Assembly (NCBI GenBank): GCA_963675665.1
Contig: OY776510.1
Location: 3,392,001-3,456,000, forward strand
Reading direction: 5' to 3'
Length of the DNA: 64,000 bases
Source: Spirochaetia bacterium
Lineage (GTDB): Bacteria; Spirochaetota; Spirochaetia; UBA9216
This document shows positions 48,399-55,318 of this stretch, piece by piece; position 1 is the stretch's first letter; the number at the start of each line of letters is the position of its first letter. Both the position numbers and the translations under genes were made by a program. Under the pieces are notes generated by a model. It ran no database searches. It saw only the letters and a program-made list of their open reading frames with translations, and had not been told where the DNA came from.

Positions 48399-49907
48399 TT
48401 ATTCGATATTATCATTGTTTATTTCAAGAGTTTCTGTCTGCGTTAATCTGAGAAACTCGGAGTCAAACGGGCGAAACCCGTAAATGCTTAATGCTCCCGG
48501 AGTAAGCACAAGCGTTCTCTCTATAGACATTTCTTTCTGTTCTTCCGTATAACCAAGTGCATAGGAACGTTCTTCAATGACTATCCCGCGGTCGTCAAGA
48601 ATCTTTAAACTGAGAATATTGATATCTGCTTTATAGACTGCGAATCCTCCGGTGATTTCTTCAAAAGAGTTTTTCATATAAAAATCTGAGCCGTAAAACT
48701 CAATAATATCACCGGAACCGCTGATATATTGTCCGGAAAGTTCCGGTAATGATGTATAGTCGATTACCCGATCCAAATCCAGGACAGTTTCTTCCTGCAT
48801 ATCCGCACTCATGCGGGTATAATTTCCTGTCCAGATATCATTGGACCCCTTTGTTCTGGTTTGGCTGTCGATATCCCTGACGGTAACGTTTATTTCGTTC
48901 AGATCAAGAATTTTAATATAAAATTCATTTTCAATATAATTAATTATCTCATTTCTGCACCGGACATAGAGCAGGTTGCTGAGAACTTTATAGGAGTTTA
49001 TCCAGCTGTAATTTTCCTGGATATCATCAAGGTAAAAAGTTGAAGCTTTATTCACGGGATCAAAATAAATTATTTTATCGTCATCGTACCACGGGCCTTC
49101 GATAAAATCATAAAAAGCCAGTTCATCGCCGGTGAACAGTTCCTCAAGCTGATTTTCTGCTACAACAGTATTTTCGATTCTTTCCTGTGAAAGAAGAAGA
49201 TATTTCTTCAAAGGAAAATCCCAATAGTATCTGGAAACAATAAGCTCGTTTTCATCTGCTTCGCTTGTTACTGTAATTGTATAACTGATCCCGTTTTTAA
49301 GGCCCTGATGGTACCCTCTTGAACGTTCAAGTTGATTAATCTCTATTGTTCCGCGTTCAGCAATATTAAAGACAGGCAGATATACCGGCTGGTTTCTTTC
49401 GGTTGTATTCTTCCAGAAAATATCAAGCGTTGTATTGCCGTCGGAATCACGGCCGGAGCATACAATCTCGGAGTTATGATCTCCGATAATATCATCAAGA
49501 TAAACAATAAATGATCTGATGTTTTCGGCTTTGGTCCGGCCATTCCAGACGCGTGAATAACTATTCTGGACATTGTCAAAATCGGCAATGGCAATATGTA
49601 TAAAACCGTCGGGATTGGATCGTTCACGGAATACAAGCATCTGTTCTTCCTGGGCATCAAGATCTATGTTCAGGTTAATTGTAGAAATAAGGATCTCATC
49701 AGAACCGAGAGGAATCAGCGGCTTGTCCGAATCAGTGTCGAACGCGCTGCTGTTATATATATTGTCAATTGAATCGCCGTCTTCTGCAGAGGGAGTAATA
49801 TCAGTAACCATTTCAGGAGATTTGTATTCTTCATCCTTGTCCATGCATGAAAGGACAATCAATAAAAAAAATATAACAGAAAAAATATGTAAACTATATC
49901 TAATCAT
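48399..49907 (-). CDS. Pallilysin (TP0751)-related lipoprotein
   Basis: Lipobox IVLS-C; NIDLDAQEEQ, DIIGDH..EIV..G, GTIEI..ERS..Y, Y.WD motifs; genomic position beside vWA and cfpA as in Treponema. Confidence 0.65.
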   Translation of the reverse strand: MIRYSLHIFSVIFFLLIVLSCMDKDEEYKSPEMVTDITPSAEDGDSIDNIYNSSAFDTDSDKPLIPLGSDEILISTINLNIDLDAQEEQMLVFRERSNPDGFIHIAIADFDNVQNSYSRVWNGRTKAENIRSFIVYLDDIIGDHNSEIVCSGRDSDGNTTLDIFWKNTTERNQPVYLPVFNIAERGTIEINQLERSRGYHQGLKNGISYTITVTSEADENELIVSRYYWDFPLKKYLLLSQERIENTVVAENQLEELFTGDELAFYDFIEGPWYDDDKIIYFDPVNKASTFYLDDIQENYSWINSYKVLSNLLYVRCRNEIINYIENEFYIKILDLNEINVTVRDIDSQTRTKGSNDIWTGNYTRMSADMQEETVLDLDRVIDYTSLPELSGQYISGSGDIIEFYGSDFYMKNSFEEITGGFAVYKADINILSLKILDDRGIVIEERSYALGYTEEQKEMSIERTLVLTPGALSIYGFRPFDSEFLRLTQTETLEINNDNIE

Positions 49908-50892
49908 TTCCCGGCTGCGCAAAGTATTTATTAAGCATATCTAACACTTTTACCTTGATTTCTTCAAGTGGGTATTTGCTTTTAAATCCTGCCGCGGTTT
50001 TATGACCTCCGCCGTTATAAATCTGGGCAATGAATGCTACGTCAATATTACCCTTTGAACGGAGAGAACAACGGAGGATGCCTTCAAGATTTTCCTTGAA
50101 AAAAACCGATACTTTGATCTCTTCACTTTTAAGAGGAATATTAATAAGAGAATCAGCTTCTTCATAAAGGGCGCCGCTCTCAATAATATCTTCTTTGCGC
50201 ATTGTCTGAACAGCAACATGATTGTCATAGAAGAACTCAAGAGTTGAAAGAACTTTGGACTGAAGCATAAGCGATGATATTGAATTGCTCTCATAAAGTT
50301 TTGAGTAAATGAAATTCGGGTTAACTCCGAGTCTTACACATGATTCTGCGATTGAGAAAGTCCTTGCTGTTGTTTTGGGATAAATAAAAGAACCAGTGTC
50401 GTAGACAATGCCCAGATAGATTGCAACGGCCATCTCGTATGAAATTTCAATCTTCATTTCATTAAAAAGCTCAAACAGCATTTCGCATGTCGAGGAAGCT
50501 TCGCTTTCAATATGATTTGCTGTCGAAACCGAATCTCCGCCCTCGTGGTGATCGAAAATAAAATAGTTTTTTACTTTGGAAAGAACGTTTAATTTTATGG
50601 AACCGATATTGTTTATATCGTTTGTATCAAGAATGAGAAGCACCCAGTCGGATATATCATCAGGAAGCTGACTATCATCCTTGTAAAGTTCAATTATATT
50701 GTCGATATCAAGAAAATAATATTTTTCCGCCATAGGATCAGCATTAATTATCTTTATCGTTTTACCTAAAGTTTTTAGAGCAAGATATGCAGCAATCTCG
50801 CTGCCTATTGCGTCGCCGTCAGGGGTTTCATGTGCAGTGAGAATGAACTTGTCATGATTATTAATAAAATCAGCTATCGCTTGAAATCTCAT
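49900..50892 (-). CDS. DHH/DHHA1 phosphoesterase (NrnA/DhhP-like)
   Basis: HETPDGDAIGS, LDT, FDHH, ASST, YDTGSF, SLRS, GGGHKTAAG. Confidence 0.92.
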   Translation of the reverse strand: MRFQAIADFINNHDKFILTAHETPDGDAIGSEIAAYLALKTLGKTIKIINADPMAEKYYFLDIDNIIELYKDDSQLPDDISDWVLLILDTNDINNIGSIKLNVLSKVKNYFIFDHHEGGDSVSTANHIESEASSTCEMLFELFNEMKIEISYEMAVAIYLGIVYDTGSFIYPKTTARTFSIAESCVRLGVNPNFIYSKLYESNSISSLMLQSKVLSTLEFFYDNHVAVQTMRKEDIIESGALYEEADSLINIPLKSEEIKVSVFFKENLEGILRCSLRSKGNIDVAFIAQIYNGGGHKTAAGFKSKYPLEEIKVKVLDMLNKYFAQPGND

Positions 50893-52051
50893 TAGTTTTA
50901 TTTTTTTTCCTTTCATCGTCGTCTTTATGCAGAATAAGGTTCCTGATAAGTATAAAGGCTATTATACCTGCAATGACAAGAATTACTATAATAATTATAA
51001 GCCAATTGAATCCGCCGATCACGTCTTTTGATTCATTTTTTTCGTTTTTTATTACGTTTTCAGTTTTACTGGCTATTTCAGAATTCTTCTCCGAACCCAA
51101 GTTACAGGAAAAGACAGCCGGAAGAAAGGGGGTGTCTCCTTCAAATTTGAAGATGACTGTACCATCAGTATTTTCAGGTATAATTCCGTTGAGCACTTCC
51201 GATGATAATGTGATATGAATATCGATTGAACTTTCAGGACTTATTGTAGTCGAGTATTTATTATCAAGCAGATGATAATTGCCGCTGCTGTTCTGGAATG
51301 TGATTTGTTCTATGATGACAGTCCTTTCCGATACATAACCTTCGCTGGAAAGAGAAAGGCTTAGAACGCCCCTGGTAATTTCGAAATTATCTGCTGTTAC
51401 CCTGCCGATAATTTCCGACTGACTGATTGGCGGCGGGAGTTCACCGGTAAAATCAAGCGTTTTGTGTGTAGTCGCAAGTTCTTCGGCAAGTTCTTCTACG
51501 GCCGTATCTGTTCCAATCCCCAAAATCATAATTTTCCAGCCTTCGCGCTGAATGGTTTTTGTGTTTTCAAGAAATTTGTGATTAAAGCTGCCGTCCGGGG
51601 TGTAATAGGGACTTTCAGGTGGGGCTTCCTGTTTGCCGTCGGTCAGCAGGATAAGATATTTTCGGTCGAAACGCTGTTGCGTGTCGTTTACAGCAGAATC
51701 AAGCCTGTCAAGAGCATTTCCGATATCTGTAAACCGGCCGTCGGCAGGTATAGCCTTTATAGTATTCATTATGCTGTAAATATTATTTTCTTTGACTATG
51801 CCGTCAAATACAAGATCAGCGTTACCGTAGAACTGAATGAAAACAAGACGATCTCCGGGAATGAGAAAGTCGCTGATAAAATATTCGTTTATATAGGACG
51901 TAACATCATCGATCTCTTCTACCATGGATTTGCTTTTGTCAACGACCAGAAACAGTTCGATATTCTCTGTTCTGGTATCTGCCGAAACGGTAATGACATT
52001 TGCCAGTAATAGAAATAAAGCCGTTATTAAAATTGTAAATTTTTTATACAT
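50870..52051 (-). CDS. vWA-domain membrane protein (TP0750-like)
   Basis: Signal peptide, MIDAS motif VDKSKSM, FTDIG, LLTDG; C-terminal TM anchor. Confidence 0.88.
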   Translation of the reverse strand: MYKKFTILITALFLLLANVITVSADTRTENIELFLVVDKSKSMVEEIDDVTSYINEYFISDFLIPGDRLVFIQFYGNADLVFDGIVKENNIYSIMNTIKAIPADGRFTDIGNALDRLDSAVNDTQQRFDRKYLILLTDGKQEAPPESPYYTPDGSFNHKFLENTKTIQREGWKIMILGIGTDTAVEELAEELATTHKTLDFTGELPPPISQSEIIGRVTADNFEITRGVLSLSLSSEGYVSERTVIIEQITFQNSSGNYHLLDNKYSTTISPESSIDIHITLSSEVLNGIIPENTDGTVIFKFEGDTPFLPAVFSCNLGSEKNSEIASKTENVIKNEKNESKDVIGGFNWLIIIIVILVIAGIIAFILIRNLILHKDDDERKKNKTNEISSDS

Positions 52052-52127: not shown

Positions 52128-52193
52128 CTTACTTTACATATCAGCATGGTTATTGATAATCTGTATACTGATAAAACTAGTAAGGAGAGTCAA

Positions 52194-54248
52194 ATGGGAA
52201 GCGTAGATTTACCAAAAAGTCCAATGGTATTCCACCCGGAAAAAAGAAGTGCGGTGGGTTCCAGGAACTCTCTTGCCCAGGAAAGCAGGGACCAACAGGC
52301 TGAAGTAGAACGGCTGCTTGAAGAAGAAGTCGACAAAGTAATAAACCATATGACAGCAAAATTACCCGATGAAGTTCTTTCAGAACTTGATGTAATGGGA
52401 GGTTTGAAAGAAAAGGTTTATAATTACTTCAACCAGAATTACCAGAACATGTTCAACCGTTATATTGTAACTGCTGAAGATGAAATGGTAAAAAAGGTAA
52501 GAAACTTCGTTGATAAAGAGGAAATGAAGGTTCTTACAAGATACACCCCGAAAGAAATAGCTACACTGCTTGAAGAAGTAGGTGGAATGGATCGCTTCAA
52601 TACCGGCGAAATTGAGAAATCAATTGTAAACATGTACGGACACCTGCAGGGACATATACAGCGTGGTATGAATGATCTTGAAAACCTGACCAATTCACTG
52701 CTGAGACAAAAAACGGATGTTGGTGCTTTTATCAGAGGCGAGAACGCGTATTCGGTTGTAAAATGTTCATTCAAGGACAGTATTCAGAAACCTAAAACTG
52801 TATGCAACGTAAAACTGTCAGTCAATATTCTTGATTCGGAACTGATAAGTCCAATCTTTCATTATCAGGCAACTGTAGAGTATTTGATTAAGGATTTGAT
52901 TTCAAAACAGATTATCGATGCAATCGATAAGGAAATCGAAGTTTTCAAGGATGAAAGACTCGACAAGGGGCTTGAAGAATTAAACGACAGTGAAATAATC
53001 TTCACCAAGATGGGGAAGGTTGAAAACCACACATCCGATGATGTCAACAATGCAAAATCAGCACGGTACAGCTACATTTCAAAGAGCATAATGGAAAAGG
53101 TTGAAGGCCTTCGGGCCGAGATTGATCCTGAAGAATTCGATCCGCTTAATATCAGGGAAAATCTTAAAAAGATTATGGATATCGAGAATATTCGTAACAG
53201 AGGGTATAATACCGCCATTAACTCAATTACAAGTATTCTTGATACTTCAAAGATGGGTTATCAGTATATAGAGAACCTTAAAAATGCACGCGAGCTTGTA
53301 ATTCGTGAATACGAAGATACAGACGATGCAACTTTACCTGATGAACGTTACAAAATAAGAATGAAATACTACGATAATGCACAGCTCATCGAAGAAAGAA
53401 AAGCCTATGATGTACAGGTTAAATCTTTTGAGGTTGAAGTTGAACACATCTGGGACGTTCTTGAAATGGTATACGTAGACGGAAAGAGAATGAAAAGAGT
53501 CACTGACTTTGAAGATCTCTCTAAAATCTACAAAAACAAGGTTAAGAAAAAAATAAAGGTAAAAACCGGTGATCCGGTTTACGAAGATATAGAAAAAAGC
53601 TGGGATGAAGTATCTTTTGTAGATGCTGCTGAAACTGAAGTAGAAAAAATGAACAGGACTTATGTTTTCCAGAAAGATAAACTGCATAAGAAACTTGTTA
53701 TGATGAGAGAAAAACTTCAGGAGATGTACGGTTACAGGTATCCGGTTCAGAGAAGGGTAATGGAAGACAGACTGGCTTTTCTTACTTCTGAATTTGCGAA
53801 ATTTGATTACATCATTAATCCGTATCATATTCAGCCGGGACTCCTTCTTGATGTTGATATTACTTCAATAAAAAGAAAGAAAGCGACTCTGGACGGTATG
53901 GCTAATGTTCTCAATGAATTCCTGCACGGTGTTTCCAAAGGTTTTCAGGATGCAGCATTCGCAGCCTTCTCAAGAAGAAGATCGACCGTACGTGAAGATA
54001 TAGACATGAGCTTTTCATCAGATCTTGAAGAAGAAGATGCGGGGCACCAGCAGTCTTTGGGTTCATCATATCTTGATATGTTGAATGCGCCTGCAGAAAG
54101 CAGTCCTGCTGAAACAACAATTAAAGAAAAAGCACCGGCCAAAAAAACAAAAGCTAAATCTACTGCCAAATCAAAAGGCGTTGTGGATAATGATAAAACA
54201 AAAACTAGACGTGGCAGGCCCAGGAAGAGTAATTTGGATACTATCTGA
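52194..54248 (+). CDS. cfpA: Cytoplasmic filament protein A
   Basis: [24 protein letters not shown]-terminus, [40 protein letters not shown], matching treponemal CfpA as recalled; AAGGAG RBS before ATG 52194. Confidence 0.9.
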
Positions 54249-54270: not shown

Positions 54271-54298
54271 AATCCCCTGTTGAGAAACAGGGGATTTT
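54271..54298 (+). terminator. Intrinsic terminator after cfpA
   Basis: AATCCCCTGTT-GAGA-AACAGGGGATT followed by a short T run. Confidence 0.7.
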
Positions 54299-54316: not shown

Positions 54317-55318
54317 ATGAATAAAATACTTCGCGTTTATGATAACCTATCAAGCAGGCAGGGGTTTAATGACTCTTTGCTTCATTTTCAGTCTGTAATG
54401 GACATAATTTCTGATTTTGAAGAGGGATATAATCTTGCAGATATACTTAACAGTCTTTTATCTGCCAAAGATATTCAACAGGGGCAGGTAGCTTCAATTG
54501 TTTCGGCTCTTCTGAATGATAAATACGGCTATTACAGCAAATCCGGAAACCTTTCAGTAACAACACACGATTTTGAAACTATTAAATCGGAATTAAAAAA
54601 ACTAAAGGCATTTGATTCTGTTATATGCTATCACCATCCCGAATTGGGATATCTTGTTATTAATCCAAAAAATGAACAAAGCTGGGATGTAACCAACGAG
54701 TTGAGAAAAAATGAGTTTGTTACTGTTTTTGTAGGTACCTTTTCAGACGAGAAAAGAGAAAATGTTCCCAGGGACAAAGTAGCGGAAAAGATCTTTGAAA
54801 TAATAAACGGCAAGAAATCAGTTTTATCTGATGTTATGAAAAAGGGCAGTTATAAGTATACTCCTTATGAAGCTTATGAAGATGAAGAAGAGTATGAAGA
54901 TGAACAGGAATATGAAGATGAAACGGAACCGGATGAGGAAGTAGAAACAGTACAGCCTAAACAGGAGCCGCAAAAGAGCAGCGGATCACAAAAAATGACG
55001 CCGATGTATTCAGTTCCTGTTACCAACGAGTTGTTTCATAACGGTAATGTTGAGGCCTGGAAAAGAATTATTCAGAGTTACAATGCAAAAAATCCGAATC
55101 TTGAAGTACATATTTTTTATGATGGAGAGAGGATTTTAAATATCGCTTCGCTTTTCAAGTGGGGAAAAGTAAAACACGGCAGTGCTATTTTGTTTGCCGT
55201 AGCAGGGGATGATATAAAGGATGTAGCAAAACTTCAGAAATATTTGAAACAGGGTGCAAGTCATCAGTTCGAAGCTTTTCTGAAATTCCCTGTTAATACG
55301 GTAATAAATCTTTTCTAG
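54317..55318 (+). CDS. Protein with unknown N-terminal domain, acidic linker and C-terminal HPr-like domain
   Basis: ATG 54317 after GAGG. C-terminal ~90 aa align by eye to HPr (VTNELFH ~ [19 protein letters not shown] ~ [24 protein letters not shown] ~ [14 protein letters not shown]). Confidence 0.7.
   Translation: [333 protein letters not shown]
54875..54928 (+). repeat. Three tandem 18-bp units encoding YEDE(E/Q/T)E
   Basis: TATGAAGATGAAGAAGAG / TATGAAGATGAACAGGAA / TATGAAGATGAAACGGAA. Confidence 0.8.

Follow-up and report, generated by a model that had tools for sequence, protein, structure and literature searches.

The window, a 64,000-nucleotide stretch of contig OY776510.1 from a spirochaete (Spirochaetia bacterium; GenBank assembly GCA_963675665.1, positions 3,392,001 to 3,456,000 of the forward strand), carries the gene for CfpA, the subunit of the cytoplasmic filament ribbon of spirochaetes, and the C-terminal tail of this protein holds a basic cluster, R-R-G-R-P-R-K, which is, by its residues, a genuine HMGA-type AT-hook in form. 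The long open reading frame (ORF) of the locus, comprising 700 amino acids (aa) with its stop codon at 54246-54248, is CfpA on the strength of its match to the NCBIfam equivalog NF040882 (cfpA_ASD), which scores 1183.3 bits against a cut-off of 500 (E = 0) and aligns aa 21-625 with all 605 of the 605 profile positions. The precomputed label PF27473 stands on every one of the 120 closest homologues among the matches listed, and a search of the ORF itself against Pfam gave no match. The gene is single-copy in the source genome (5.15 Mb, one contig), which belongs to an organism from a small order of 11 genomes. Translation probably starts at ATG 52194 instead of ATG 52146; the upstream start is doubtful because an AAGGAG sequence (52183-52188) lies 6 nt ahead of ATG 52194, because the CfpA proteins of Marispirochaeta and Sediminispirochaeta start at the point matching this ATG (MGSIDLPKSP, in homologues of the form MGS(I/V)DLPKSP), and because a promoter-like site (TTTACA-16-GATAAT, 52133-52160) overlaps the upstream ATG. 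Residue numbers follow the 700-aa ORF throughout. A Foldseek comparison of the full CfpA model with the PDB returned nothing at E <= 0.001, just coiled-coil noise, and a search for longer fused forms of CfpA (1226-3500 aa) found none at E <= 1e-10, which is weak evidence.

Because the NF040882 profile ends at aa 625, the last 75 residues form a tail outside the core, the elements of which are listed in Table 1. In an AlphaFold2 model built from a 60-row alignment (mean predicted local distance difference test score, pLDDT, of 69.6), the core lies mostly at pLDDT 70-94 and the values fall below 50 at aa 602-640, 648-691, and 693-700; the AT-hook is predicted to sit in a disordered segment with no secondary structure there. 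The sequence-only reading of this DNA had described an acidic patch after the conserved core, a Lys/Ala-rich tail, and an AT-hook-like RGRP with basic flanks at 54207-54227. All of these are present: DLEEED opens the tail, 12 of the 18 spacer residues are Lys or Ala, and the codons read RRGRPRK at exactly those positions, with a canonical R-G-R-P core preceded by R688, followed by R693 and K694, and placed in the predicted disordered segment. Its further description of the Lys/Ala tail as histone-H1-like has composition as its sole basis, and the tail draws nothing from Pfam at E up to 10. The Lys/Ala-rich part is a single 18-residue stretch, not a long AKKA/PAKK/KPAA repeat array, and in relatives the sequence of this spacer varies while its composition is basic. 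Within the basic half of the source tail, the two basic residues are partitioned, with 4 of 4 Arg inside the hook and 10 of 11 Lys outside it. A feature search of the ESM Atlas with aa 650-700, covering named clusters only, gave no usable match.

Table 1. Features of the cfpA locus (positions in the window, residues in the 700-aa numbering)
Feature	Position	Strand	Remarks
cfpA ORF	52146..54248	+	NF040882; 700 aa, or 684 aa from the probable start at ATG 52194
Conserved CfpA core, aa 21-625	52206..54020	+	profile 1-605/605; mostly helical, three small sheets in model
C-terminal tail, aa 626-700	54021..54245	+	outside family profile; predicted disordered
Acidic patch DLEEED, aa 626-631	54021..54038	+	read from translation
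YLDMLN motif, aa 642-647	54069..54086	+	sole predicted tail helix (aa 639-646, model)
Lys/Ala-rich spacer, aa 660-677	54123..54176	+	8 K and 4 A in 18 residues
GVVD motif, aa 678-681	54177..54188	+	conserved phylum-wide
AT-hook core RRGRPRK, aa 688-694	54207..54227	+	codons AGA CGT GGC AGG CCC AGG AAG
C-terminal peptide NLDTI	54231..54245	+	family-wide form G-L-x-x-[LI]-COOH
G+C-rich terminator-like hairpin	54271..54296	.	11-pair stem and 4-base loop; just past cfpA stop
Conserved downstream ORF	54317..55318	+	333 aa from ATG 54317; syntenic, likely partner of cfpA; family-less

The AT-hook in the CfpA tail is more than chance, as judged from its motif statistics. The pattern [RK]GRP[RK] occurs once in the 6207 ORFs of at least 100 aa in the genome, namely in CfpA, and about 3.1 occurrences are expected per genome by composition; hence, the bare 5-mer is unremarkable, and the weight comes from the full 7-mer [RK][RK]GRP[RK][RK], expected 0.037 times genome-wide and observed once, and from conservation in relatives. 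In 200,000 shuffles of the protein's own tail, GRP with at least two flanking K/R arose in 0.09% of trials when the whole 86-aa tail was shuffled and in 0.27% when the last 20 aa were, and the strict 7-mer in 0.001-0.006%. For the relatives, a hook-bearing tail was defined as one with GRP and at least two flanking basic residues, K or R alike. By this definition 98 of 248 unique tails carry the hook, as against a mean of 0.5 (maximum 4) in 1000 composition-preserving shuffles, or 1.3 (maximum 7) if the last 30 residues alone are shuffled, figures that express non-randomness and not a probability, because the relatives are not independent.

The residues that vary and those that do not are equally informative about the hook. 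Across the 115 hook-bearing tails in a set of 302 unique tails, the residue before the G of GRP is Arg in 95% and Lys in 0%, whereas the flanks are K or R in about 80-90% and exchange the two freely (position -2, K 43% and R 38%; position +3, K 55% and R 35%; position +4, K 71% and R 19%). The ratio of Arg to Lys is 273:171 inside the motif and 297:888 outside it in 98 hook-bearing tails. Arg is thus required just where an AT-hook needs Arg, which plain electrostatics would not demand. Among seven genomes of the source family, the codons of the hook are synonymously variable at 6 of 7 positions (CGT/CGC/CGG, GGC/GGA/GGT, AGG/AGA, CCC/CCT/CCA, and others) with a single K-to-R replacement, and the residues bordering the hook change (T/P/Q before it, S/N/D after it); the synonymous variation shows that it is the protein, rather than any nucleic-acid element, that is constrained. 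A terminator-like site on the minus strand (54223-54205), an imperfect palindrome, overlaps the hook codons; it was rejected as a real element since there is no converging gene and the codons vary synonymously in relatives. The position of the motif is likewise restricted, with the G of GRP 11-16 residues from the C-terminus in 111 of the 115 tails, and 8 of the 115 have two hooks (e.g., RRRGRPPAKAKRGRPRKGS in family code f92). Such a pattern would be expected of a selected R-G-R-P core, not of a mere positive patch, with the selection acting at the protein level.

The survey of CfpA orthologues that the sequence-only reading had suggested finds the motif recurring at a fixed distance from the C-terminus, rather than absent. 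In a protein-cluster search, the 120 closest of 2775 matching clusters (73-91% identity) include 71 with the hook and 95 with R-G-R; in species-representative named genomes (e.g., Marispirochaeta sp., Sediminispirochaeta sp., Spirochaeta sp., and many metagenome-assembled genomes named 'Spirochaetales bacterium'), the hook is found in 48 and R-G-R in 67 of 76 complete tails, Marispirochaeta and Sediminispirochaeta being among the bearers of the hook. An even sample of 401 genomes of the class yielded CfpA in 208, from which 146 tails were obtained via 150 listed matches, 144 of them complete, with family codes f70, f71, f73, f87, and f108 outside this coverage. Among the matches listed, 64 of the 144 complete tails have the hook, and these fall in 20 of 40 family codes. 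Some family codes are rich in it (f1 9/10, f68 14/14, f69 7/7, f92 7/7, f85 6/8, f86 2/2) and others devoid of it (f2 0/13, f6 0/8, f98 0/8, f104 0/7, f74 0/5, the last with RGRK[KP]K). A phylum-wide sample, also of 401 genomes, yielded CfpA in 148, and no tail examined outside the class has the hook, the hookless tails of this sample showing a short Lys cluster (…KGSVDLSPKSKKKSSGLKEL) or none (…PEGIVDVSKDDDGLSEI). When 50%-identity cluster representatives of at least 480 aa are considered, the hook is present in 4 of 53 (P0123, P0161, P0194, P0206). As to the gene itself, several of the phylum's large family codes yielded no CfpA (f20 0/75, f25 0/38, f5 0/37, f12 0/44), and in f2 it was found in only 14 of 50 genomes, including all 9 of one genus and none of the 24 of another.

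Comparison of the 302 unique tails reveals a common plan, in which RRRST is followed by an acidic stretch, an aromatic/hydrophobic motif (with forms such as YLDMLN, FEAAYK, and YQMNFLEE), a spacer, G-[VI]-[VI]-D, a basic cluster, and finally G-L-x-x-[LI]. A YLDMLN-like motif is present in 186 of the 302 and G-x-[VILA]-[DN] in 232, while C-terminal position -4 is Leu in 249 and position -1 Leu or Ile in 274. The basic cluster between GVVD and the C-terminal peptide is the variable part of the tail. By their sequence, the GVVD motif and the C-terminal peptide look like short protein-docking motifs. One genome (G005, family code f17, loci L113-L115) encodes three CfpA paralogues, two of which end straight after the core and are tailless.

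The history of the hook was traced on trees of CfpA cores with the tails removed, namely a FastTree tree of 116 unique cores and a quick IQ-TREE tree (LG+G4) of 115 rows, from which L179, with an internal stop, was excluded. On the former, a minimum of 15 changes is required to explain where the hook is present or absent, with 10 or more of these forced by starred branches, compared with about 39 (minimum 27) for shuffled labels; on the latter 14 are required, and the distinction of R-G-R or hook from neither needs 10. The 105 rows of a large clade (support 100) divide into 59 with the hook, 33 with R-G-R alone, and 13 with neither (including the misread L179), so that R-G-R, present in 92 of the 105, is the deeper and more stable feature. 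The residue after it alternates (RGRP, RGRK, RGRS, RGRL, RGRG), with the proline gained and lost. The f2 proteins include the CfpA of Treponema pallidum and T. denticola, as established by exact sequence look-up, the tail of the latter reading ...GSVDSGRGRRKAKSGIREI. The median charge of the spacer, in raw counts, is +3 in tails with the hook, +5 with R-G-R alone, and 0 with neither; phylogenetically independent pairs were too few to indicate co-evolution of a basic spacer and the hook (median p = 1).

Several elaborations of the basic cluster were recovered in these relatives. In some, RG/RGG-like arrays (GRGRGRS..., RGGRGRGG) replace the single hook (L251 in G723, L262 in G557, L065, and L075), and these Arg-Gly arrays resemble eukaryotic RG/RGG boxes. 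Two distant CfpA-like proteins with 25-28% identity to the query, P0194 and P0206, have KRGRPKK at other distances from the C-terminus, and P0161 (486 aa) has RKGRPRK followed by AKAPKKAGAPPKAK, with the hook at -69 in P0194 and at -53 in P0161. P0148 (803 aa) has a 360-residue A/P/V/K-rich tail. P0148 and P0161 extend for about 360 and 137 residues past the TSIKRK core motif, with a histone-H1-like composition that in P0161 is of the AKAPKK type, and such longer A/P/K-rich tails are confined to these two distant proteins. These elaborations indicate that tails of a putatively nucleic-acid-binding type were added to this scaffold more than once.

The host is a free-living spirochaete, and its AT-hook tail suggests that the filament can hold DNA directly. 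We infer both the ligand and the role from the sequence, and give about an even chance to the proposal that the tail is a DNA-binding module with which the ribbon holds the periphery of the nucleoid. The R-G-R-P core would enter AT-rich duplex DNA at its narrow minor groove, with the Lys residues nearby touching the DNA phosphates. A single hook would be weak, but polymerization would line up the hooks of all subunits, one from each, on a ribbon that spans the cell beneath the membrane, and the filament could thereby become a multivalent rail holding or positioning the edge of the nucleoid. The sequence-only reading had noted reported nucleoid and division defects in treponemal cfpA mutants, in agreement with the chromosome condensation and filamentation described for a T. 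denticola cfpA mutant as cited in PMC3398590. A broader proposal, which we hold only tentatively and regard as somewhat doubtful, is that the CfpA ribbon might be a chromosome-organizing, intermediate-filament-like cytoskeleton whose AT-hook or R-G-R on each subunit would make a multivalent DNA-binding rail over the whole cell length, spreading and partitioning the nucleoid of long helical cells.

A number of observations weigh against reading the tail as a DNA tether. The hook is absent from 20 of the 40 family codes of the class, and is hence dispensable for CfpA as such, and f98, f8, f11, and f28 have acidic tails without any basic cluster. Neither the 60 further tails of the phylum sample, 59 of which come from families labelled as the same phylum, nor eight others (L099, L103, L105-L110) have a hook. 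On the core trees the hook is evolutionarily labile, with at least 14-15 gains or losses. What extends across the phylum in the tail is not the hook but G-[VI]-[VI]-D and the C-terminal G-L-x-x-[LI], and this conservation implies that the main job of the tail may be protein docking. The hooks do not track AT-rich genomes, an idea that was rejected because the median local G+C is 0.466 with the hook and 0.466 without it. In the CfpA of T. pallidum and T. denticola, R-G-R occurs without the Pro, and since the treponemes with the nucleoid phenotype thus lack the proline, the step from motif to tether is weakened. The HMGA-type AT-hook corresponds to Pfam PF02178 (AT_hook), and hmmscan against Pfam-A (E <= 10) found neither this nor any other family in the 75-aa tail, a weak negative in that the filters drop most faint matches and a 7-residue motif scores few bits; a phmmer comparison of the final 40 aa with PDB sequences (E <= 10) likewise gave no match, again a weak negative. 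Work on HMGA leads one to expect a single AT-hook to bind DNA weakly. Finally, a figure legend in PMC13398306 places the cytoplasmic filaments along the whole cell length, immediately beneath the cytoplasmic membrane, which makes anionic lipids an alternative polyanion.

That last point leads to the view that the tail is a polycationic linker acting by charge only, which would bind anionic phospholipids of the inner membrane or acidic CfpA surfaces (in one variant bundling ribbons via the DLEEED patch of neighboring subunits), with the G and P incidental; we consider this unlikely. It accords with the placement of the filaments just below the cytoplasmic membrane (PMC13398306), with the KKKK, RSRKK, RGRKKK, or RRRR clusters that relatives have in place of the hook, with the acidic patch ahead of the basic half of the tail, and with the 14-15 changes of hook state on the trees. 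However, it leaves unexplained why Arg is held and Lys excluded before the G while the flanks swap K and R, why the G and P stay invariant under synonymous codon turnover in the source family, and why the hook is duplicated in tandem as a whole. Moreover, the model shows neither an amphipathic nor a hydrophobic membrane anchor in the tail, and the existence of families without a basic cluster means that charge is no general requirement.

Another possibility is that the hook, GVVD, and G-L-x-x-[LI] together form a composite docking peptide that is read not by DNA but by a protein partner, be it the product of the downstream ORF, a membrane anchor, or a bridge. The ORF at 54317-55318 has no Pfam or NCBIfam family, and its homologue adjoins cfpA in 127 of the 134 loci that exceed 3 kb; in P0133 (841 aa), its N-domain is fused to the CfpA core in place of the tail (BLASTP E = 1e-23, 33% identity over 153 residues). 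This fusion and the synteny make the downstream ORF a likely functional partner of CfpA, a so far unnamed filament-associated protein by these genomic criteria. They also speak for docking, as do the phylum-wide conservation of GVVD and the C-terminal peptide and the location of the hook between the two at a fixed distance. Nevertheless, we regard docking of the hook as improbable: across the phylum the basic cluster shows the weakest conservation among the three elements, whereas residues contacting a partner should be kept, and distant CfpA-like proteins have hooks far from the C-terminal peptide (P0194, P0161). The acidic linker of the downstream ORF (YEDEEEYEDEQEYEDE...), present in some lineages alone, shows no co-variation with the hook (Spearman rho 0.17, p 0.06), a further point against docking. 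A pairing of the basic tail with this acidic linker was rejected as a general account, the linker being lineage-limited and not following the hook. A complex prediction for the downstream ORF and the CfpA tail (aa 615-700) gave no answer, scoring 0.00 twice without controls, and weighs neither way.

AT-hook variants and RGG boxes bind RNA, and the tail could on this account be an extended AT-hook or an RG/RGG-like tail that localizes RNA or ribosomes along the ribbon. The RG/RGG-like arrays of some relatives (L251, L262, L065, L075) are in keeping with it, but the source motif is a short canonical DNA-type core with immediate K/R flanks, and the reported mutant phenotype concerns the chromosome, such that we assign an RNA ligand a low probability. 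Least probable is the account in which the motif lacks a specific function and arose by accident in one lineage, within a basic tail of low complexity, to be passed on by descent, for although the bare 5-mer is expected about three times by chance in such a proteome and the trait is labile on the tree and missing from half of the sampled families, the excess of hooks over shuffled tails (98 of 248 against 0.5), the 0.037 expectation of the strict 7-mer, the fixed position and duplication of the hook, and its recurrence in CfpA-like proteins at 25-28% identity tell against it, while the Arg-specific core and its synonymous turnover weigh against this account and the charge-only one alike.

Beyond the downstream ORF, the window carries a gene for pyruvate phosphate dikinase, and on the other side, divergent from cfpA on the minus strand (48399-52051), lie genes for three proteins, one with a VWA domain and a membrane segment at its C-terminus, one a DHH/DHHA1 phosphoesterase, and one with a pallilysin domain. 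The arrangement of the VWA, DHH/DHHA1, and pallilysin genes is reminiscent of the cfpA region of T. pallidum. The neighborhood of treponemal cfpA is shared with the source locus (the downstream ORF, with the pyruvate phosphate dikinase, VWA, and pallilysin genes found here), and treponemal CfpA (CFPA_TREPA; NF040882) follows the same tail plan, with F/YxDMxN, G-x-V-D, a basic cluster, and a C-terminal [GA]-I-[KR]-E-[LI]. The treponemal tails differ in having R-G-R without Pro and a spacer that is shorter and less Lys-rich than that of the source. The organisms also stand apart, the source spirochaete being placed in a separate small order.

Scaffolds such as bactofilin-PadC-ParB, PopZ-ParB, and DivIVA-RacA position the chromosome via a separate folded DNA-binding adaptor; in CfpA, by comparison, the filament subunit itself bears the candidate for DNA binding, a short motif. 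With HMGA1 and HMGA2 it has in common the R-G-R-P core, the K/R flanks, the disordered segment (predicted in CfpA), and an acidic stretch in the same chain. These proteins have three hooks, whereas CfpA, a cytoskeletal protein that polymerizes, bears one (two in a few relatives); its acidic patch precedes the hook, and that of HMGA is C-terminal. A narrow crescent shape has been described for the R-G-R-P core of the AT-hook, and H-NS and Lsr2 insert a Q/RGR core in the AT-rich minor groove (both from PMC4466236). The CfpA tails of T. pallidum (KGRRGRRS) and T. denticola (GRGRRKAK) have an R-G-R of the H-NS/Lsr2-like form, although the motif of H-NS and Lsr2 lies in a loop of a folded domain, whereas that of the source CfpA lies in a predicted disordered tail and includes a proline. 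A closer bacterial parallel in arrangement is CarD of Myxococcus xanthus, the disordered C-terminal domain of which has four RGRP hooks after an acidic region and binds AT-rich minor grooves; the same source calls RGRP hook motifs rare in bacteria and states that an H1-like basic disordered domain can replace the HMGA-like domain of CarD (PMC8156234). The CarD and CfpA tails thus both present an acidic region and then RGRP in a disordered C-terminus, which for CfpA is a prediction, and the Lys/Ala-rich spacer with the hook parallels the H1-like replacement. In contrast to the filament-forming CfpA with its single hook, CarD has four hooks, an RNA-polymerase-binding module, and a role in transcription, and the two have no sequence relation beyond the motif.

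A full-text literature search by whole words found nothing that links CfpA with an AT-hook, although the older subscription literature on CfpA might hold a remark; with looser matching, the papers listed all concerned pancreatic cancer, where 'cfpa' is probably the name of a cell line. What appears to be new here is the scaffold, a bacterial cytoskeletal polymer, which carries a DNA-binding motif of a known type. If the proposed DNA contact holds, the HMGA-type AT-hook would have here one of its rare bacterial uses and, to our knowledge and as far as these full-text searches reach, its first on a bacterial cytoskeletal polymer. Should it fail, YLDMLN, GVVD, and GLxx[LI] remain candidate bridging or anchoring contacts of the ribbon. 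How the chromosome is spread and partitioned in the very long and thin cells of spirochaetes is poorly understood, and we know of no molecular explanation so far for the chromosome condensation and division block that follow CfpA loss in T. denticola. A minor-groove-type motif on the filament subunit offers a simple and directly testable hypothesis, under which the R-G-R tails of treponemes would contain the key residues in genetically tractable species. On the broader and more doubtful proposal of a chromosome-organizing cytoskeleton, the CfpA ribbon would be an adaptor-free bacterial counterpart of lamin-chromatin tethering, and the loss of its DNA contact would account for the condensed chromosome of cfpA mutants.

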